Of a DNA stretch of 11,530 bases, positions 1 through 11,530 are shown one piece after another. A program made the position numbers and the translations under genes. The stretch is taken from positions 1-11,530 of the forward strand of contig JBHLNT010000130.1 in NCBI GenBank assembly GCA_048941265.1, in the 5' to 3' direction. Numbering within the stretch: position 1 is the first letter of the stretch; each line of letters opens with the position of its first letter. The notes below the pieces were generated by a model. The model was not told where the DNA came from. It made no database searches and was given only the letters and a program-made list of their open reading frames with translations. The stretch is from Promethearchaeota archaeon (GTDB taxonomy: Archaea > Asgardarchaeota > Lokiarchaeia > Sigyniarchaeales > SOKP01).

Positions 1-1265
1 AGATCCAAAATTAAATCATCGGGATCTTCCAATCCTACTGAAAACCTAAAATGAGTTTTGGAAATGTTCATAGATCTACGTTCCCATCGCGCGAGATCAA
101 TACCCGTCATCAGCCCTGTAAATTCAATTAGCGAAGTAGTATCTCCAAGTGATACACCCACTTTAATGAGTTTGAGCAAGTTTATAAATTTATTACTCAT
201 TTCTTCCGTTTCCAATTCAAAATCAACCATCCCGCCGAATCTTTTCATTTGCCTCTTTGCAAGTTCATGTCCGGGGTGTCCTTCCAAACCTGGATAGATA
301 ACCTCTCTAACTTTAGGATGTTCATTTAGATATCTAGCAATTTTCATGGCGTTTGAGCAATGTCTTTCCATCCGCATATTTAAAGTTCTCATTCCTCTAA
401 GGATCAACCATGCATTAAAAGGACTCAACACAGGTCCATGAGTTTCCCCCCAGAAATAACGAATATTTCTTATATCATTTTCATTTCCGATAACTGCTCC
501 ACCGAGACAATCTCCATGTCCATTTATATATTTTGTTAAACTCTCAATTACTAAATCCGCTCCTAATTCTAAGGGTCTTTGAAGAGCAGGAGATGCCCAT
601 GTATTGTCAACAACGCATTTACCGCCTATTTCATGTATCAAATCCGCACAGGTTTCAATATCTATTACATCATTTGTAGGATTTGCTGGAGTTTCTACAT
701 AAATTAATCTAGTTTGCTCATCTATCGCACTTTTTACCTCTTCAATATTACGCATATCAATTCTTTTAAAGTCTATACCCATTTGAGGATAAATCTTGGT
801 AAAAAGCCGGTAAGATCCTGTATATAGATTTTTATGGATAATCATGTTAGGAATTGTTTCCGGATTATTTTGTGGGAGTAGTTCTTTAAGTTTTTCCGGT
901 TTAACTCTCTCTATACGCTTCTGAAGGACACACATGCAGGCAAGATGAACTGCAGCCATACCAGATGCCACTGAAATCGCTTTTTCTCCTCGATGGAGGG
1001 TTGCTAGTTTTTGATCTAAAGCAAATAAAGTAGGATTTTCTGTTCTGGAATAAAAATAACGATCTTTTAACATTTCATCAAAAGTTCTAAATGTATACGA
1101 TTTTGCTGCATAGATTGGGGGACGAATACTATGTGAAGTCTCAGGGTAAGGATCTTCTCCTGCCCTTAGTATCTGGGTATCAAAACTCATTTTGTCCCAT
1201 AGTTCTCGGTTAATTTTATCATCTTCTCGGGGGATTAATCTGATATCTCTTTCTTCCTCTCCCAT
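1..1265 (-). CDS. PLP-dependent Cys/Met metabolism (trans-sulfuration family) enzyme, methionine gamma-lyase / cystathionine gamma-lyase-like; 3' end truncated by the window edge
   Basis: Not in the ORF track; translated by hand from ATG at 1265, open for 421 codons to the edge (MGEEERDIRL...). Family motifs present: YSRTENPT, ASGMAA, ETPANP, VDNTWASP, PLP-lysine motif SLTKYINGHGD (Lys codon 531-533), LILRGMRTL, YPGL, FGGM, VSLG and RFSVGLEDPDDLILD. Only a few C-terminal residues should be missing. Confidence 0.93.
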   Translation of the reverse strand, partial: MGEEERDIRLIPREDDKINRELWDKMSFDTQILRAGEDPYPETSHSIRPPIYAAKSYTFRTFDEMLKDRYFYSRTENPTLFALDQKLATLHRGEKAISVASGMAAVHLACMCVLQKRIERVKPEKLKELLPQNNPETIPNMIIHKNLYTGSYRLFTKIYPQMGIDFKRIDMRNIEEVKSAIDEQTRLIYVETPANPTNDVIDIETCADLIHEIGGKCVVDNTWASPALQRPLELGADLVIESLTKYINGHGDCLGGAVIGNENDIRNIRYFWGETHGPVLSPFNAWLILRGMRTLNMRMERHCSNAMKIARYLNEHPKVREVIYPGLEGHPGHELAKRQMKRFGGMVDFELETEEMSNKFINLLKLIKVGVSLGDTTSLIEFTGLMTGIDLARWERRSMNISKTHFRFSVGLEDPDDLILD

Positions 1266-1361
1266 GATAATCGCTTTGCTGTAGTTTTTAAAGTTTTATT
1301 TTAAGTTTAATTAAATATAAGAATGAATAGAATTATAAATTCTTGAAGTTTTAAATTATCA

Positions 1362-2879
1362 TTAATCTAATTTTATTCCAGGTATAGAATCAGTTCCCGC
1401 GGTGTTTTCCATTCCTTCTGCTTTTTGATAGTCATCCATCGTTCGAGATGCGACTTTTTTCGTATATTCTGCTAGTTTCTTTTCCACACCTGGATCTAAA
1501 CCAGGACCTATTTGTTTTTGTAAAATTTCTTCTACTTTCGCATATGCATTTTGGATAATATCCTTTGCTCCCCTCTTTTTCCATGTTCCCCGTCTGTCTC
1601 TATCTGCTAATTTTGGGACGAATAGTTCTTTCCTTATGTTTTTTACAGAATGCTTTGTTCCTAAGAAATTTCTTGTTGTCGTAACAATTTTTTTTATCTC
1701 TTCCATAGCAATTGTATCTTCATCGATCCGAATACCTTCCATCCCTCTTTTAATTATATCAATTAATTCATCATCAATAACAAGTAATTCTAAAGCTTCG
1801 GATAAAGATGACTCATAGGTGCCCGCACAAGTAATATAATTTACACCAGAATTAGCCGCACACGATAAAGTCATAAATCGTTCGTACCCGTTTTGGATAT
1901 CAAACACTTTAGATTCAGTGACTGCTCCAGGTCCCCTTGAGGGGATATTATAATGACGTCCTAACTGTGCGAACGCTGAAGTAATTAATCCAGTTTCTAT
2001 AGCACCCCATGCTACATTACCAGTTTGAGGATCCATTGGTGCTGACATCGTTGAATAAAAAATGGGAGCACCTCTATTTATTAATTGAGTTAATGTGATA
2101 GATGATAATATTTCCATATTAGTTTGGGTTATTAAGCCTGCTAATGTAACAGGTGCAGTTGAACCAGCACTAGCAGCAGGGGCAATGATGGTAGGCTGTT
2201 TATATTTAGCCCAAACAAAGAGACCATTCAACATAATTCTAGTTAACATTAGTGGACTAGTAGGATTAAAGAATCCTACCAATCTAGGGGATTTTATTAG
2301 TTCATCATTCCCTCCTACGATAATGGATGTTAAATTCATCATGTCCCGGGATGCCAGACCTCCATAACATCCTAAACCATATGGTTTGCGACTATGTTCT
2401 GCCCAAGCCCTTATTGCATGGCAATGTAATTCCAAAAAAGGAACATCATTGGGCCATACATCCACATGAGAACACATGATATTTTTTAGACTATCGACAA
2501 TTCTAATTTGTTTAACCGTATCTTCCATGATTGTTTTTCGTATACCTCGTTTACTTCTGGGGTCATAGATTTTTACTGGAGTTCCAACTGTAGCAAATTG
2601 GCTTGATTTTGTATCTACAGAGAAGGAAAATGACCCATCTGGCCCCCATAAAGTGAATTTATCGGGAACGTGTTTTAACTGCTCCTTAACGAGCTCTTCT
2701 GGAAATTTGACCCACATATTTTTACTATTATTATCCACTATTGCTCCACTCTCTTTTAATAAAGTTCTTGCCTCTGGAGAATCAACTATTATACCCGTAG
2801 TTTCTAATAGTTCTAGAGTTGAGCTGTGAATTAGTTCGAGCTCATCTTTCGTTAATACTTCCATTCTTGTCATTTTCAT
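1362..2879 (-). CDS. mttB: Trimethylamine methyltransferase (MttB) superfamily corrinoid methyltransferase, non-pyrrolysine, paralog 1
   Basis: 505 aa. Motifs: EVLTKDELELIHSSTLELLETTGI, NPTSPL, AGSTAPVTLAGLITQTNME, GAP, MDPQTG, E-x-G, QLGRHYNIPSRG, TESKVFDIQNGYE, LVIDDE. No in-frame TAG. SD-like AAAGGAG upstream (reverse complement of about 2890-2896). Confidence 0.93.
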   Translation of the reverse strand: MKMTRMEVLTKDELELIHSSTLELLETTGIIVDSPEARTLLKESGAIVDNNSKNMWVKFPEELVKEQLKHVPDKFTLWGPDGSFSFSVDTKSSQFATVGTPVKIYDPRSKRGIRKTIMEDTVKQIRIVDSLKNIMCSHVDVWPNDVPFLELHCHAIRAWAEHSRKPYGLGCYGGLASRDMMNLTSIIVGGNDELIKSPRLVGFFNPTSPLMLTRIMLNGLFVWAKYKQPTIIAPAASAGSTAPVTLAGLITQTNMEILSSITLTQLINRGAPIFYSTMSAPMDPQTGNVAWGAIETGLITSAFAQLGRHYNIPSRGPGAVTESKVFDIQNGYERFMTLSCAANSGVNYITCAGTYESSLSEALELLVIDDELIDIIKRGMEGIRIDEDTIAMEEIKKIVTTTRNFLGTKHSVKNIRKELFVPKLADRDRRGTWKKRGAKDIIQNAYAKVEEILQKQIGPGLDPGVEKKLAEYTKKVASRTMDDYQKAEGMENTAGTDSIPGIKLD

Positions 2880-2925
2880 GATAGATTAACTCCTTTTATC
2901 GCTATTTTTTCTGATTTTTATTGAT

Positions 2926-2960
2926 TAATTTTTTTAAAAATAATAATTTTTTTAAAATTA
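2926..2960. promoter_or_regulatory. Divergent promoter region with two tandem near-palindromes (TAATTTTTTTAAAA repeated with 18-bp period)
   Basis: TAATTTTTTTAAAA occurs at 2926-2939 and 2944-2957. 2944-2960 is a perfect 7-3-7 inverted repeat. It lies near the centre of the 136-bp gap between divergent mttB1 and the corrinoid gene, and TTTAAAA TATA-like words read on both strands. Confidence 0.45.
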
Positions 2961-3015
2961 TACGATAAGAATAATAAATATAGGATAATAAGAAAAATAG
3001 AAAGAGGATGTTAAG

Positions 3016-3663
3016 TTGTCTTTAAAAGAAAAAATGAAAGAAACGATTATAGAATGGAACGAAGATGGATTAAGAGAGATATGTAGATCTGCTATTGAAA
3101 GTAAAGAAGCATCGGCAGCTGAACTCTTAAGTATCATAGGAGATGTCATGAGATTTATTGGGAATCAATTTGAAAATGAAGAAATTTTTCTACCGGATTT
3201 AATTGGCTCTGCTGATACCGTTAAGACTATCATAGATGAAATTTTAGATCCTGCAATTAGAGCTTTAGGAGAGGAAAAGCAAACAAAAGGAAAAGTTGTT
3301 TTGGGGACTGTAGAAAGCGATGTTCACTCTATTGGAAAAGATCTTGTCGGTTCATTTCTCTTTTCCAATGGATTTGAAGTGTATAATTTAGGAGTTGATG
3401 TATCTGCTTCGGCATTTATTGAGAAAGCGGAAGAAGTGGGAGCTCAGATAATTGCGATGTCATCACTTTTGACAATGTCAATGGATTTTCAAAGGAAACT
3501 TATAAAAGAATTGGAAGATAGAGGCATCCGTAATAAATATAAAGTAATAGTCGGTGGAAGTCCGACCTCAGACGAATGGGCAGATGAAATTGGAGCTGAT
3601 GGTTGGGCTGATGATGCTATAGAAGCTGTATCTCTTGTGAATAAGATCCTAAATATTAAATAA
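3016..3663 (+). CDS. Methyltransferase-cognate corrinoid (B12-binding) protein, MttC/MtbC/MtaC-like
   Basis: 215 aa. N-terminal cap domain (IGNQFENEEIFLPDL) plus B12-binding domain with DxHxxG (SDVHSIGK), NLGVDV, SSLLT, VIVGGSP and IGADGWADDA. TTG start with SD-like AGAGGA at 3003-3008; alternative ATG at 3034. Confidence 0.95.
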   Translation: MSLKEKMKETIIEWNEDGLREICRSAIESKEASAAELLSIIGDVMRFIGNQFENEEIFLPDLIGSADTVKTIIDEILDPAIRALGEEKQTKGKVVLGTVESDVHSIGKDLVGSFLFSNGFEVYNLGVDVSASAFIEKAEEVGAQIIAMSSLLTMSMDFQRKLIKELEDRGIRNKYKVIVGGSPTSDEWADEIGADGWADDAIEAVSLVNKILNIK

Positions 3664-3696
3664 AATTACCTTGATTTTAGAGAGTTAGATCAAAAA

Positions 3697-5223
3697 ATGA
3701 AAATAAATAAATTAGAAGTTCTTTCCAAGGATGAAATAGAAACCATTCATTCTGCTTCTATTAAATTATTGGAAAATGTCGGTATTAAAATAGATGCTGA
3801 CGATTGCCGAAAACTACTCCAAGAAAACGGTGCTGAAGTAGATAAAAATTCAAATTTCGTTAAACTTCCTGAACTTTTAATAAAGGAACAATTAAAGCAT
3901 GTACCAGATTCTTTTAGATTGTACGGAAGGGACGGTTCCTTTAATTTTGAAATTAATACTCATAGTACCCAATTTGGGACTATTGGTACTCCAGTTCGTA
4001 TTTATGATGCAATGAAAAAAAAAGGCTATCGAAAAGTTGTTTTAGATGATAATATAAACCAAATACGTATTGTAGATCGTACAGATCATATCATGGCATC
4101 ACATATAGATGTATGGCCTAGCGATGTGAACTTTCTTACTGTGCATACTGAATGTATATATGTTTGGGCAAAAAATACTCGAAAACCTTACGGTTCTGGA
4201 TGTTATGGAAGAGTCGCAAGCAAAGATATGATTGATATGATGTCTATTATTGTAGGTGGAGAAAAAGAATTAATGAACAGACCAAGAATGATTGGTTTTA
4301 TGAATCCAACAAGTCCACTACATTTACCCACCCTAATGACAAATGGTCTTGAAATTTTTGCTAAATTTAAGCAGCCAACAATCGTTGCTCCTGAAGCCTT
4401 AGCTGGTACGTCAGCTCCTGTTACAATGGCGGGTTTATTAACCCAAACCAATGCGGAAATACTGGCAGGAATAGTTGTGGCTCAATTATATAATCCAGGT
4501 GCCCCTGTATTCTTCGGAACGGTATCACATATAACTGACATGAGATCTGGAAATTCCGCAATAGGATCTGTAGAGACAGGTCTAATGACTGCTGGAATAG
4601 CTCAGTTAGCAAGATATTATAATATTCCTAGTAGAGGTTTAGGTGCGGTGACTGATTCCAAATGTTTTGATATTCAAAATGGCTTAGAACGATATCAAAC
4701 TTTAATGTTTGCGGCTCAGGCAGGTATTAATTACATTACATGTGCTGGGACATACGAAGCTACACTCGCGGAAGCATTAGAATTAATTCTAATTGATGAT
4801 GAAATTGCAGGTATGATTAAAAGAGCATTTAATGGTATTGAGGTAAATGAAGACACAATAGGTTTGGATGTAATAGAAAAAGTTGCCACTAAAACAAAAC
4901 CGGGTGCAACTTTTTTAAGTGAAAAACATACGAGAAAATATATGAAGAAAGAGTTGTATATACCAAAACTATTGAACAGAAATCGAAGAACCACATGGCG
5001 TAAAAAGGGGAAGAAGGACATAATTAGTAACGCAAGCGAGAAAGTTGAAAATATTCTAAAAGAATTCGTGGAGTTTGAAATTCCAACAGATATGGATAAG
5101 GAATTGAAATCCTTTATGAGAATGGCTGAAGAAAGAACTTATGATTATTTTAGAAAAGCTGAAGGGATAAGTGCTGATTCTGTAAGCTTACCTGATGGAA
5201 TCGAAATTCGTGAGAATAAATAA
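3697..5223 (+). CDS. mttB: MttB superfamily corrinoid methyltransferase, non-pyrrolysine, paralog 2
   Basis: 508 aa, 33 bp downstream of the corrinoid gene, so probably one operon. Motifs: NPTSPL, AGTSAPVTMAGLLTQTNAE, PGAP, DMRSG, QLARYYNIPSRG, TDSKCFDIQNGLE, LIDDE. No in-frame TAG. Confidence 0.93.
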   Translation: MKINKLEVLSKDEIETIHSASIKLLENVGIKIDADDCRKLLQENGAEVDKNSNFVKLPELLIKEQLKHVPDSFRLYGRDGSFNFEINTHSTQFGTIGTPVRIYDAMKKKGYRKVVLDDNINQIRIVDRTDHIMASHIDVWPSDVNFLTVHTECIYVWAKNTRKPYGSGCYGRVASKDMIDMMSIIVGGEKELMNRPRMIGFMNPTSPLHLPTLMTNGLEIFAKFKQPTIVAPEALAGTSAPVTMAGLLTQTNAEILAGIVVAQLYNPGAPVFFGTVSHITDMRSGNSAIGSVETGLMTAGIAQLARYYNIPSRGLGAVTDSKCFDIQNGLERYQTLMFAAQAGINYITCAGTYEATLAEALELILIDDEIAGMIKRAFNGIEVNEDTIGLDVIEKVATKTKPGATFLSEKHTRKYMKKELYIPKLLNRNRRTTWRKKGKKDIISNASEKVENILKEFVEFEIPTDMDKELKSFMRMAEERTYDYFRKAEGISADSVSLPDGIEIRENK

Positions 5224-5224
5224 A

Positions 5225-5269
5225 TTTTGCTTCTTTTTAATTAGTTCTATATATTTTGACTTTTATTTG
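5225..5269 (+). terminator. Putative oligo-T archaeal terminator after mttB2
   Basis: Several T tracts (TTTTG, CTTCTTTTT, TTTTG, CTTTTATTTG) in the 46-bp convergent gap. Confidence 0.35.
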
Positions 5270-6223
5270 TTACAAAAACAGAATGATATAATTTCCAATA
5301 ATTATCAAACTCACGGCAATTAGAAATCTTTTACGGAATTTTTCTTTTAAAATGAGAACAGAAAAGATCTGCTGAACCATAGGGGTATTAGCTGTTATTG
5401 TCGATGTTAGAATTAATCCATTAATCCTCGCAGCTTCATAAAACAATGAATCTGCCAAACCTAAAGATAACGAGCCAGCAATCCCAATATATCCATAATA
5501 TTTTAAATTATGTCTTTCCTCTTTTTTAAAACCACCATAAAATTCACGCTTAAAGAACCCTAAAATGGTTATGAAAACTGTAGCAAAAATGATTCGAAGA
5601 AAATTGGTAACATATACATCGTTACTAATGATTCTTGCTTGATGAAATGAGACGATGGCTATAGCCCATAAAAAAGCTGTTCCAATAGCGAAAACTACAC
5701 CAATAAATACCTCTTCAGAATTTTCTCTTTTTTTATTATTCTGGCCTCGTTTGTTCAGATCAATCTCTTGATCTTCATCCTTATCCTTTTTACTTAATAA
5801 TAACACACCAGAAAGAATTAATATACCACCAATTAAAATAGACCATGTTAATTCCTCACCAAATAGGAAGAAAGCGAAAGGATATACAAATATCAAGCTC
5901 AATTGCGTTAGGGGAAACGCTCGCGAAGCATCAATTTTTTTAAGCGATGTAAAATACATTAAATCCCCTACAGTAACACTTAAACCACAAATTAAGCATG
6001 AGATAAGATAAATTGCAAGTTCATATTTACTCAATCTTGATAAAAAGGTATAGCTTCCAATGATCAATGAAAGAAGAAATGTAAAAAGTGAAACACAACA
6101 TAATCTAAAAAGGATGGTTCCTTTTGTATTTGTTTTACCTAGACCAAATTTATAAACTAAGGACGCCAAACTCCAAGTAATTATTGCATCAATGGTTAAT
6201 AAATATCCTATTAATTCAGCCAT
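5270..6223 (-). CDS. EamA/DMT superfamily transporter
   Basis: 317 aa with about 10 hydrophobic helices in two repeats. DMT hallmarks: W-S-x(5)-K, LYF-like LMYFTSLKKIDASRAFP, FLFGEEL, FLWA, VLILKEK. Confidence 0.9.
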   Translation of the reverse strand: MAELIGYLLTIDAIITWSLASLVYKFGLGKTNTKGTILFRLCCVSLFTFLLSLIIGSYTFLSRLSKYELAIYLISCLICGLSVTVGDLMYFTSLKKIDASRAFPLTQLSLIFVYPFAFFLFGEELTWSILIGGILILSGVLLLSKKDKDEDQEIDLNKRGQNNKKRENSEEVFIGVVFAIGTAFLWAIAIVSFHQARIISNDVYVTNFLRIIFATVFITILGFFKREFYGGFKKEERHNLKYYGYIGIAGSLSLGLADSLFYEAARINGLILTSTITANTPMVQQIFSVLILKEKFRKRFLIAVSLIIIGNYIILFL

Positions 6224-8169: not shown

Positions 8170-8997
8170 TCATTTAATATGATATAAGCTATTTTTAAGT
8201 TCATCTGCTAGGGCTTCTAATTTATTGGCAGTCGCGGTAATTTCTTCCATTGAGGCAGTTTGCTCTTCCGCTGAGGCGCTAATTCCTTGCATACTTTCAA
8301 AAGATAAATTTATTTTGTTGATTATTTCATTAATTTCATGTCCTGTATTTGTAACGGCTTTCTTTGACTGTGTAGCTAATTTTCGGACCTCTTCAGCAAC
8401 AACAGCGAAACCGCGTCCGTGTTCTCCCGCTCTTCCAGCTTCTATACGAGCATTTAAAGCTAATAAATGAGTTTGTTCTGCTAAATTCGTAATAATATCC
8501 ATAATATTAATAATATTCGTTGAAGATCTCATTACTTCCTCGGTATTTCTGGTCATTTGCATAGATGCTGAAGCAATTTCTTCTGCTGATGCGTTGACTT
8601 CACTAGCACTTGCGGCCAACTCCATAGCTATATTTGCGACATTTACGGAACTTTCAGAAGAAGTATTAATCACCTCTTCTAATTGTTGATAATTTATCTT
8701 TATAATTCTATTCATGTATAGAGTAAGGATTATAGCAACAGAAATTCCCAGTGGATAAAGTACAAAAGCTGAAATCCATGAATTATTGAAAGTTCCGGCC
8801 TGAAGTAAACCCAATATAGCCATTAATCCAACTACAAAAGTAGAAACAAAAGCTACTTTAGCATAGATCTTTGATTTTTCATTTCGATAATGATAATTAT
8901 ATACTAAAGAGATAACAACAACACAAATTGGTACTAGAATGTAATTTAAGGTATTATCATAATTCATCTGTAATAGCACAAATATCCCCAATTTCAA
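8170..8997 (-). CDS. Methyl-accepting chemotaxis-like protein (short signalling domain, about 3 N-terminal TM helices)
   Basis: Hairpin-tip motif [37 protein letters not shown] and methylation-like motifs ([20 protein letters not shown]). Start is uncertain: TTG 8997 or ATG 8967. Confidence 0.9.
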
Positions 8998-9252: not shown

Positions 9253-10113
9253 TTGGTACAATCACTTATGATAATAAAAGTTCGTTGCCCTTCTTGTGGA
9301 AAATGGGGAGATATTGAAATCTCTGAAGAATCAACGAAACATATTACACGTGGACTCCTCTCTGTGAATGTGATGGCGAATACTATTTGTCCGGATTCAT
9401 TTATCGCCTATGTTGATAAAAATTTAAGAGTTAGGGACTATTTTATTGCTGATTTTCAAATTGAACTTCCCGAAACGATTTTTGAGAAACCAGTTATAGA
9501 AAAAAGACTACTTTTCGAAGATACACTTGATTTGGATTTAATAAAACTCAATATACCGGCTATTATACTGTCTTATATTCTTAGAGGAATCTTTTTCAAA
9601 CAAAAAGTCGCATTAGTTTTAGAGGAGATTTTCTTAAAAACTCATATTACCAATTTTTTTAAATATACTACTCAAGATACATTTAAATCTGAGATTTCTA
9701 TAATTTCTAAAGAGGATTATATGAATAATAAAAAGGATTTTAAAGATTATTTGGTATTTGACAATAATGGAATAATTAATGATAAAGATAAAATAATTAA
9801 TCCAAAAAAAATTCCCATTGAGAAAAGAATAATTCATCAATTTCTTCTTGAAAGCGATAAGAATGTAAGTTTCATTCTATTGAGAAATGAAATGCAAAAA
9901 GCCTTTGAATTATCTAAATATATTGCTAGTTACTTTGACACAGTAGAAGATAGGAAGAAAATCGATGCTCATAAAATAAGTGATAATCTACAAGATGCAT
10001 ATAAAAGTAAAATTTCTTCTGTTTATTTAAACTTCCTATTTGAGATAGTAGAAAATTATTTTGAGGTTAATATACCGAGTAATGTGAAATTAGTCTTAAA
10101 GACAATCTTTTAA
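9253..10113 (+). CDS. Hypothetical protein with N-terminal Zn-ribbon-like module (CPSC...CPD), Lokiarchaeia-type family
   Basis: 286 aa open frame with VRCPSCGK...ICPDSFIAYVDKNLRVRDY. Start is TTG 9253 or ATG 9268. Family assignment is from recall, not from a search. Confidence 0.75.
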   Translation: MVQSLMIIKVRCPSCGKWGDIEISEESTKHITRGLLSVNVMANTICPDSFIAYVDKNLRVRDYFIADFQIELPETIFEKPVIEKRLLFEDTLDLDLIKLNIPAIILSYILRGIFFKQKVALVLEEIFLKTHITNFFKYTTQDTFKSEISIISKEDYMNNKKDFKDYLVFDNNGIINDKDKIINPKKIPIEKRIIHQFLLESDKNVSFILLRNEMQKAFELSKYIASYFDTVEDRKKIDAHKISDNLQDAYKSKISSVYLNFLFEIVENYFEVNIPSNVKLVLKTIF

Positions 10114-10154
10114 AATAGGGAATTTTTAAATATTTCAAACTTAAATATATTAAT

Positions 10155-10874
10155 ATGGCAATTGAACCTAATTCACCTGAATTTAATTTATTATTTCTTT
10201 TAGTACTTATAATAATAGCTATAACAGGAATGATTTGCGTCTATTTAGGAAAGAGAGTTTTAGATAAAAGCAAAGAGCAAGGTTTTCTTTCCTTTGATTT
10301 TCTTTTTGGAATTTTTATTAGTATGAGTACTTTATTTGTTTCAAGAATAATATATATGTATTTTGATTTCTATTTAACTCAATTTGACACAACCAAATAT
10401 TATTTATATCCCAATATATGGTACTATAAAATTGGGGGATTAATTTATCTATCGGGCTTTGCCATACTCCTCTTTATAATTGATAAGGAATTGTTAGAAT
10501 TCAAATTAAAAGGGATTCTTGCTTATATTATCATTGCTGTTGTTTTAATTGAATTAATATATCCCGTCAATTCACAAAAAGATTTCGAATTTATATCGGC
10601 ACTAGAAATTATTGCTTTTTTTGTGGGATTATTAGTGCCATTCATTTTCATTTATATCGGTGCGAAAACACCCAGTTTACAGGCGACTTCATTCATATTC
10701 GCTACTGGAATTATCTTATTCTATATAGGAGTCGCAATTGTAGCAGAATTTATTTTGGCTCCATTAAGAGAAAGCTATGGATCAGCAATTCAAATAACTA
10801 TTTGGATTTTGTCATTAATTCTTCAGATCATCGGTTTAATCTTAATGACTTATGCTTCAACGAAATATAAATGA
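10155..10874 (+). CDS. Hypothetical 7-TM integral membrane protein
   Basis: 239 aa with seven hydrophobic segments of about 20 aa and no soluble domain. It starts 41 bp after the previous gene on the same strand. Confidence 0.8.
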   Translation: MAIEPNSPEFNLLFLLVLIIIAITGMICVYLGKRVLDKSKEQGFLSFDFLFGIFISMSTLFVSRIIYMYFDFYLTQFDTTKYYLYPNIWYYKIGGLIYLSGFAILLFIIDKELLEFKLKGILAYIIIAVVLIELIYPVNSQKDFEFISALEIIAFFVGLLVPFIFIYIGAKTPSLQATSFIFATGIILFYIGVAIVAEFILAPLRESYGSAIQITIWILSLILQIIGLILMTYASTKYK

Positions 10875-11015: not shown

Positions 11016-11530
11016 ATGGTTTATCGAATTTTACGTCCAGATTCAATGTCAGTTTGGAAAAATGAAGAAATACTTAGGAGATTTTCATATTATAGGGGGA
11101 TAATAGATGGTACTCGTATTGCTAGGTATTTAATTGCAAGGACTTTAGAATGTCACTTTAATCCGAATGATTCATTAGAAAATTTAGAAACTCTGCTTAA
11201 TGAAAAGTCAAAAGAATTCAATCAAATTATCTATGAAAATGCTGAAGAGCTTAAAACAAGAAAAGTTACCTCTCCTAATTATATAAGTTTAGCTGAAACT
11301 ATTGCTAATAAATATCTCGAAAGTTGTATCTTTTGTGAACGGGAGTGTGGAGCAAATCGCATTAAAAATGAAAAGGGATATTGTCTATTAACTAAAGATT
11401 CCTATGTATCATCCGCTTTTTTACATATGGGCGAAGAGAGTGTATTAATTCCTAGCGGAACAATTTTTTTTCAATCCTGTAATTTTGGCTGTGTATTCTG
11501 CCAAAACTATGATATTTCTCAAGCTTGGAA
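11016..11530 (+). CDS. pflX: PflX-type (COG1313) radical SAM protein, pyruvate formate-lyase activating enzyme-like; 3' end truncated by the window edge
   Basis: Not in the ORF track; hand translation from ATG 11016 is open to the edge: MVYRILRPDS...CIFCERECGANR...GYC...FLHMGEESVLIPSGTIFFQSCNFGCVFCQNYDISQ. It has the CxxxCxxC radical SAM motif plus the upstream CxxCxxxC-x(11)-C motif typical of PflX. Confidence 0.88.
   Translation, partial: MVYRILRPDSMSVWKNEEILRRFSYYRGIIDGTRIARYLIARTLECHFNPNDSLENLETLLNEKSKEFNQIIYENAEELKTRKVTSPNYISLAETIANKYLESCIFCERECGANRIKNEKGYCLLTKDSYVSSAFLHMGEESVLIPSGTIFFQSCNFGCVFCQNYDISQAW

Follow-up and report, generated by a model that had tools for sequence, protein, structure and literature searches.

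We analyzed an 11.5-kb stretch of DNA (hereafter, the window), which is the entire contig C119 of the Promethearchaeota source genome G000 and carries two methyltransferases of the MttB superfamily next to a corrinoid protein and a pyridoxal phosphate (PLP)-dependent enzyme of the Cys/Met-metabolism family, referred to below as the lyase. Across the window, 11 open reading frames (ORFs) of at least 80 aa have a sensible reading. Matches to Pfam and NCBIfam profiles over positions 1-6223, together with intact open frames, bear out the five-gene layout proposed in an initial annotation: the lyase gene follows mttB1 on one strand, mttB2 follows the corrinoid protein gene on the other, and a gene for an EamA-family transporter converges on mttB2 (Table 1). 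The divergent orientation of mttB1 and the corrinoid gene, also part of that annotation, was confirmed, and the AT-rich spacer between them is presumed to be a bidirectional archaeal promoter region. An alignment of the spacer revealed a conserved block in the two closest relatives only, and a scan for sigma-70-type promoters and terminators, a model not applicable to archaea, returned 20 sites versus 29 in shuffled sequences.

Table 1. Features of the methyltransferase cassette and its transporter neighbor in the window
Feature	Positions	Strand	Remarks
PLP enzyme of family PF01053 (atypical Cys/Met-metabolism enzyme, methionine-gamma-lyase-like)	3..1265	-	400 bits; runs past the window start
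mttB1, non-Pyl MttB-superfamily methyltransferase	1362..2879	-	PF06253, 319 bits; same direction as the lyase gene
AT-rich spacer between mttB1 and the corrinoid gene	2880..3015		136 bp; sequence inspected
Corrinoid protein, MtgC/MtbC type	3016..3663	+	B12-binding_2 (PF02607) and B12-binding (PF02310); TTG start
mttB2, non-Pyl MttB-superfamily methyltransferase	3697..5223	+	PF06253, 344 bits; always downstream of the corrinoid gene
EamA/DMT transporter	5270..6223	-	PF00892; neighbor outside the conserved cassette

Both ends of the window look like assembly-graph breaks rather than true ends, as bases 1-77 are identical to the end of contig C26 and bases 11454-11530 to the start of contig C169 (77-base overlaps). 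Contig C26 (3,856 bp) carries the last 8 codons and the stop codon of the lyase gene, giving a protein of 429 aa, and a convergent gene for a carrier of the MFS_2/GPH family, the 3' end of which lies ~65 bp beyond the lyase gene; a metallo-beta-lactamase-fold gene and then ogt are located beyond the carrier. Since single contigs of the two closest relatives show the identical order carrier-lyase-mttB1-corrinoid-mttB2-EamA, the junction between C26 and C119 is real.

Conservation of the cassette in Asgard archaea

The relatives retrieved with the lyase are metagenome-assembled genomes (MAGs) of Promethearchaeota/Promethearchaeia, i.e. Loki-type Asgard archaea. Three samples were used: 61 relatives, 400 genomes from the Asgard phylum, and 31 annotated lyase-bearing loci. 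The lyase was found at 62% identity or more in 20 of the 61 relatives, and in each of the 20 an MttB gene is located on the same contig within ~1 kb. In the phylum-wide sample, the lyase clade is present in 75 of 400 genomes, with occurrences in families f1 (71 of 134 genomes), f2 (1 of 14), f13 (1 of 31) and f16 (1 of 22). An MttB match lies within 2 kb of the lyase on the same contig in 67 of these 75 genomes; among the other eight, six lyase matches are no more than 1.6 kb away from the end of a contig, and only three candidates were scored per genome. A contig-level scan for lyase loci yielded 11 loci, all in Asgard MAGs. Dozens of genomes share the arrangement, with proteins 62-95% identical, which is far beyond chance, and the lyase-MttB-corrinoid-MttB linkage, for which the initial annotation had asked whether it recurs, is a conserved unit in Asgard archaea.

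By analyzing the 31 annotated loci, we classified the genes into core members, an accessory member and bystanders. Carrier (GPH/MFS_2), lyase, corrinoid protein and MttB2 make up the conserved core, to which MttB1 is usually added. The mttB2 gene is present in all 31 loci and the corrinoid gene in 30 (it is missing in G015), and the carrier adjoins the unit in 25; five of the six loci without it end at that point of the contig, and in the sixth the contig breaks off after a 294-aa ORF. The accessory member is MttB1, found in 19 loci, absent from 11 and undeterminable in one. The EamA/DMT transporter had been taken for a part of the unit, but it stands beside the cassette in only two loci (G001 and G003, both of the same genus as G000) and is a bystander, the conserved carrier being the GPH/MFS_2 protein encoded outside the window. 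Genus g11 displays a rearranged order, with mttB2 downstream of the corrinoid gene on one side of the divergent region and mttB1 downstream of the lyase gene on the other; lyase and mttB1 have thus swapped places, yet they remain together. Because the linkage persists through this rearrangement, through the loss of mttB1 and through divergence to 62% identity, it appears to be under selection.

Several other neighboring genes were considered as possible members and rejected, namely those for RDD, VTT and Flavin_Reduct proteins, two proteins of 366 and 381 aa, and a pair of thioredoxin-fold proteins, each of which is confined to one or two genera. In genus g3 only (loci L016, L017, L019, L025 and L050), mttB2 is followed by a very divergent URO-D/MtaA-like gene, and next to the carrier gene there are a further MFS_2 gene and two genes for thioredoxin-fold proteins. 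In G282, carrier and lyase are separated by an inserted MNT/HepT toxin-antitoxin pair. Single in-frame stop codons were observed in mttB1 of genus g11 (TAG in G210:C141, TGA in G211:C99 and TAA in G223:C113), and the lyase gene of G252:C65 carries an in-frame TAG. They reflect decay or sequencing error, and the mixture of stop codons argues against recoding.

Sequence features of the lyase, the methyltransferases and the carrier

G000 has no true PF01053 protein other than the lyase (398 bits versus 33 bits for the next match). PF01053 is absent from the near-complete cassette-less relatives G006, G019 and G024, and two other cassette-less relatives possess a different member of the family. 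A housekeeping role in trans-sulfuration is therefore unlikely; the lyase rather behaves like an enzyme private to the cassette. Among 1.84 billion representative sequences, its clade forms a single full-length cluster at 781 bits, and the next single-domain proteins score at most 297 bits with at most 46% identity; the clade is isolated. The best 120 of 5,984 close matches are all Asgard records or metagenome contigs and bear automatic names only.

This distribution bears on an anabolic role of the cassette, in which an onium methyl group would be transferred to homocysteine to yield methionine, and the PLP enzyme would make or recycle homocysteine. Precedents are offered by the corrinoid system shared between glycine-betaine demethylation and methionine synthesis in Ruegeria pomeroyi, as presented in the available part of PMC12478193, and by the corrinoid-dependent core methionine synthases, as presented in that of PMC7857596. 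However, Pfam and NCBIfam profiles detected no homocysteine-binding methyltransferase domain in the cassette, a dedicated importer is linked to it, and its occurrence is patchy even within family f1, complete relatives being devoid of any such enzyme. We consider an anabolic coupling very unlikely.

The best solved relatives of the lyase by both sequence and fold are methionine gamma-lyases (MGLs), represented by the Citrobacter freundii enzyme (311 bits, 40% identity, TM 0.93 for a structure model with pLDDT 89). The catalytic residues Y72, R74, Y148, D220, K245 (the PLP lysine), S372 and R407 are invariant in the clade, thus the enzyme is predicted to be catalytically intact and shares with the MGLs of C. 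freundii and Pseudomonas putida the PLP-binding Lys and the catalytic Tyr, Asp, Ser and Arg, as well as a Val at the position of Glu339 in cystathionine gamma-lyase (CGL). The likeness to Met gamma-lyase on which the initial annotation had built does not extend to a canonical MGL. The MGL-specific Cys (C115 in C. freundii, C116 in P. putida) aligns with Gly150 in 26 of 26 clade members, the K239/D240 pair of MGL is not retained, and the scores of the lyase fall short of the equivalog cut-offs of both MGL models (356.5 versus 549.7 for TIGR01328; 334 versus 666 for PRK07503).

The lyase is not assigned to the cystathionine gamma-synthases (CGS) or CGLs either: it scores 358 bits with PRK07811 (CGS) against a cut-off of 513 and has no Glu at the E339 position, though it does retain an Arg (Arg153) five residues after the catalytic Tyr (Tyr+5), as in CGL and CGS and in distinction from MGL. 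With the OSH sulfhydrylase model (328 bits) it is likewise below cut-off, and NCBIfam gives no assignment, the lyase falling under every equivalog cut-off. A look-up in the ESM Atlas did not discriminate either, returning only generic clusters for trans-sulfuration, each at 0.98.

A comparison of the clade with its 24 nearest relatives identified seven clade-only residues: T149, R153, E241, E274, T377, T383 and G388. The nearest relatives have Gly at position 149, His at 241, Glu at 377 and Pro at 383, while position 388 is occupied in 24 of 24 by the His of an MTH motif. All 117 full-length clade members aligned contain a 21-residue insert (positions 118-138), which is modelled as a short helix; the insert and the replacements of the MTH His by Gly, of Pro by Thr and of His241 by Glu also separate the lyase from MGL. 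Under the mapping onto human CGL (hCGL) that we take to be correct, the positions 59, 119 and 339 are occupied in the clade by Phe/Tyr, Arg and Val (Val371, 26 of 26 clade members), respectively, being MGL-like at two and CGL-like at the Arg. The substitutions E59N, R119L and E339V are those by which human CGL was engineered to a methioninase, according to the title of PDB entry 5tsu.

Both MttB proteins belong to the non-Pyl type, as neither frame holds a stop codon, UAG included; their PF06253 scores exceed the cut-off of 25 bits. MttB1 and MttB2 share 55% identity, and both score below the cut-off of 525 for TIGR02369, the model of the Pyl-type trimethylamine methyltransferase MttB (367 and 407, respectively). 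Among solved structures, they score 237 and 260 bits with MtgB of Desulfitobacterium hafniense, 209 and 229 bits with Pyl-MttB, and 179 and 184 bits with 4yyc. In the available part of PMC13080624, MtgB is described to bind glycine betaine via Y97, F356, R312 and H348, where R312 is conserved in MtgB, MtpB, MtcB, MtyB and MthB and pairs with the acidic group of the substrate.

The equivalent of R312, within an IPSRG motif, is retained in MttB1, MttB2 and all aligned orthologs (14 of MttB1 and 17 of MttB2). The other three residues are not: Y97 is replaced by V in MttB1 and by I in MttB2, F356 by S and T, respectively, and H348 is deleted in both, orthologs included. MttB1 and MttB2 are therefore not glycine-betaine enzymes, in line with the initial annotation, and the conserved Arg suggests that their substrate is probably still an acidic onium compound.

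The corrinoid protein has both the cap and the B12-binding domain, and its DxHxxG motif reads DVHSIG. Its best NCBIfam match is MtgC (197 bits versus a cut-off of 310), so it is not MtgC proper. The gene starts with TTG in the window and with ATG at that position in the relatives. In comparison with known systems, the cassette MttBs have the TIM-barrel common to the non-Pyl proteins MtgB (PDB 2QNE, 9YCE), MtpB, MtcB, MtyB and MthB, and the cassette resembles MtgB/MtgC of D. hafniense in its adjacent DxHxxG corrinoid protein, its Arg312, and a second methyltransferase and an activase that are encoded separately. It differs from the latter system in the low scores of its MttBs with MtgB (237-260 bits) and the loss of Y97, H348 and F356, in having two MttB paralogs around one corrinoid gene, in its linkage to a PLP lyase and a GPH carrier instead of a BCCT/ABC betaine carrier and MtgA, and in its methyl acceptor, which is likely tetrahydromethanopterin (H4MPT) reached via MtrH. 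The cassette is a variant of the corrinoid-dependent MttB methyl-transfer systems.

The kinship to these systems raises an alternative, namely that the cassette is an ordinary module for demethylation of an N-betaine, of the kind proposed for other Asgard archaea, with which the PLP enzyme merely co-travels while acting on another substrate such as a sulfur amino acid or a different amino acid. All characterized non-Pyl MttBs use N-quaternary amines, as far as the available parts of PMC13080624 and PMC11291895 extend. R312 is retained, and MttB2-like proteins paired with a corrinoid protein but no lyase occur in G060 (65% identity) and G179 (48%). However, none of the genomes searched showed the lyase apart from MttB, relatives devoid of the cassette do not have it, the linkage survives rearrangement, and the three glycine-betaine residues are lost; we judge this alternative unlikely.

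The features of the two enzymes also permit the opposite order of events, with the lyase first cleaving an imported amino-acid conjugate and the MttBs demethylating the methylated leaving group, which could be methanethiol/dimethyl sulfide (DMS) or an onium compound with an acidic group. The fixed acidic residues E241 and E274, along with the other motif changes, could suit a cationic side chain. The URO-D/MtaA-like gene downstream of mttB2 in genus g3 could also fit this order, since the URO-D/MtaA family handles methyl-thiol chemistry in methanogens, but the gene is restricted to that genus. No candidate conjugate is known. Free methanethiol and DMS, whose demethylation by an MttB was one of the routes suggested in the initial annotation, are disfavored as substrates, as they have no acidic group for the conserved Arg. 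A lyase-first order seems quite improbable to us.

The carrier encoded on C26 matches PF13347 with 202 bits and TIGR00792 with 180 bits (cut-off 231). Its nearest solved relative is MFSD2A, a symporter of lysophosphatidylcholine (95 bits versus 62 for MelB). By analogy with the quaternary-amine zwitterion carried by MFSD2A, this likeness gives a weak hint that an onium zwitterion may be imported. It could also point to the head group of a betaine lipid or lyso-lipid as the substrate, for instance trimethylhomoserine of diacylglyceryl trimethylhomoserine (DGTS), and an O-substituted homoserine would suit a gamma-lyase. On the other hand, the alpha-nitrogen of DGTS is trimethylated, in conflict with the primary amine needed by a PLP enzyme, and three demethylations would be required, whereas known MttBs take one methyl group and act on quaternary amines only (in part from the available text of PMC13080624). 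A betaine-lipid substrate is highly improbable.

Candidate pathway and substrate

From the gene content, the linkage and the intact catalytic residues of the cassette we infer a direction of flow, a substrate class and a candidate substrate. A primary alpha-amine is required for PLP chemistry, a carboxylate would be called for by the conserved Arg of the MttBs, and an external substrate by a dedicated importer; together, the three suggest an amino acid that carries the methylated center on its side chain. On balance, we favor the interpretation that the cassette encodes a single catabolic unit, which handles an imported onium compound that is acidic and has its amino-acid end free, and in which demethylation is followed by lysis.

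In the proposed pathway, the carrier would import a zwitterionic acidic onium compound bearing a free alpha-amino-acid end, and MttB2, along with MttB1 where present, would transfer one methyl group from the onium center to the Co(I) form of the corrinoid protein. An MtrH-type enzyme encoded elsewhere would pass the methyl group to tetrahydromethanopterin and hence into the Wood-Ljungdahl pathway, while RamA-type activases, also encoded elsewhere, would keep the corrinoid reduced. The private PLP enzyme would then split the demethylated amino acid by gamma- or beta-elimination to a 2-oxo acid, ammonia and a leaving group, and the resulting 2-oxo acid could be fermented.

The genes required for the remaining steps of this route are available. 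Away from the cassette, G000 encodes two MtrH homologs, one of them 1.6 kb from a B12-binding gene, two RamA-type activases and four more MttB copies. Its corrinoid methyl-transfer repertoire is very large, with totals of 36 matches to B12-binding domains, 27 to the URO-D family and six to MttB. The presence of the MtrH, RamA and B12-binding genes elsewhere in G000 means that a route from methyl-corrinoid into the archaeal Wood-Ljungdahl pathway is available. In addition, an MttB paralog with 65% identity to MttB2 adjoins genes for formylmethanofuran dehydrogenase subunits on contig C96 (L005, 3030-9882). The neighbors at this locus encode FwdA-like and molybdopterin subunits and an acyl-CoA synthetase, their order is kept in G001 and G003, and there is no corrinoid gene nearby.

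The lead candidate for the substrate is S-methylmethionine (SMM). Its demethylation would yield methionine and methyl-Co(III), and cleavage of methionine would release 2-oxobutyrate, methanethiol and ammonia. In SMM, three carbons stand between the sulfur and the carboxylate, as they do between the nitrogen and the carboxylate of gamma-butyrobetaine, the substrate of MtyB. Demethylation of SMM to methionine followed by lysis, a part of one route outlined in the initial annotation, remains the most economical candidate, although we consider it rather unlikely that SMM itself is the substrate. The further step of that route, from methionine to homocysteine, is disfavored together with MttB action on free methanethiol or DMS: both fit poorly with the MttB Arg, methyl transfer from a thioether to a pterin is energetically poor, and the molecules concerned are short of an acidic group or of a good leaving group. 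In its enzymatic form, the proposal would make MttB2, and perhaps MttB1, the first sulfonium-demethylating members of their family (SMM:corrinoid methyltransferases), serving a private lyase that splits methionine; this we put forward tentatively, as a possibility on the doubtful side.

Several points weigh against these interpretations. We know of no MttB-family enzyme that acts on a sulfonium. GPH carriers mostly move glycosides, and the known SMM importers belong to another family. The lyase is, by its sequence, not a canonical MGL, and since it lacks the MGL Cys and the K/D pair and has an Arg at Tyr+5, methionine may not be its substrate; Arg153 is presumably typical of enzymes that bind a distal carboxylate, as in cystathionine or O-succinylhomoserine. 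If methionine were the substrate, a lyase without MttB would be expected in some of these peptide fermenters, and none such was seen. The role of the second MttB does not seem to be explained by its pocket, given that the mappable pocket positions are nearly alike in MttB1 and MttB2. Finally, the related genomes are kin, so that the counts of linked loci, such as 67 of 75, overstate the number of independent events.

A role of non-Pyl MttB, a corrinoid protein and MtrH in methylotrophy that feeds the Wood-Ljungdahl pathway was proposed for Atabeyarchaeia, Freyarchaeia and other Asgard archaea in the available part of PMC11291895. The present cassette resembles that system in its non-Pyl MttB, its MtbC-like corrinoid protein, MtrH, and the entry of a methylated substrate into the Wood-Ljungdahl pathway; it differs in its fixed private lyase and GPH carrier, a gamma-lyase not being mentioned in the part of PMC11291895 available to us.

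With the literature considered as a whole, our searches returned no work that joins MttB with methionine gamma-lyase, and the view of the initial annotation that the module had no earlier description holds within the literature searched; subscription journals and supplements may hold more. Among the matches listed, no report combined MttB with S-methylmethionine, dimethylsulfoniopropionate or a sulfonium, none on S-methylmethionine and corrinoids dealt with an MttB-lyase association, none on Asgard archaea mentioned methionine gamma-lyase, and the titles and abstracts of work on the MttB superfamily since 2021 gave no new substrate beyond phosphocholine.

The mtpCAP/mts systems of Methanosarcina likewise combine a corrinoid protein and a methyltransferase with an MFS carrier, in their case one for a methylated sulfur compound; they differ from the cassette in having URO-D/MtaA-type methyltransferases instead of the MttB fold, in the transfer of the methyl group to coenzyme M and in having no PLP enzyme. 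The non-Pyl MttB enzymes are very numerous, and to our knowledge six substrates of the family have been established, trimethylamine and five quaternary amines. The fixed partners of the cassette MttBs, an importer and a remodelled private lyase, would narrow their substrate to a small chemical class, acidic onium compounds whose amino-acid end is free. A sulfonium substrate such as S-methylmethionine would widen the chemistry of the MttB family and link Asgard archaea to organosulfur cycling in sediments, where they would serve as an anaerobic sink for organosulfur compounds of the onium type and would release methanethiol. The methyl group would feed the archaeal Wood-Ljungdahl pathway, and the compound would provide a defined growth substrate for enriching these hard-to-culture relatives of eukaryotes.

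Additional methyltransferase loci and the remainder of the window

Another MttB paralog of G000, with 60% identity to MttB1 and Lys in place of Arg312, is located on contig C251 (L006, 8673-12247). It is followed by genes for a 4Fe-4S (Fer4) protein and for a PLP-dependent, VioD-like aminotransferase whose nearest matches are PRK07324, GntC and capreomycidine synthase. Adjacency to DUF6206 is likewise found in G021. Pairing of this MttB with a PLP enzyme was considered as a recurring theme and dropped, since the trio is conserved only in G003, a genome of the same genus.

The two corrinoid-MttB pairs without a lyase are found in different gene contexts. In G060 (L051, family f7) the pair stands beside genes for an NMO-family FMN enzyme and a 2-oxoacid:ferredoxin oxidoreductase, and in G179 (L052, family f21) it is followed by genes for two enoyl-CoA hydratases and an amino-acid dehydrogenase of the Glu/Leu/Phe/Val type.

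The right-hand part of the window encodes, at 8170-8997 on the minus strand, a 275-aa protein with a methyl-accepting chemotaxis signalling domain (PF00015, 103 bits), in which no sensor or membrane part was detected; the gene is kept in G001. Two further ORFs of 286 and 239 aa (9253-10874) have no Pfam or NCBIfam match and a GC content of 24-26%, versus 33-37% in the cassette. Both are absent between the chemotaxis gene and the next ORF in G001 (L009), a genome of the same genus, and the segment looks like a strain-specific insertion.

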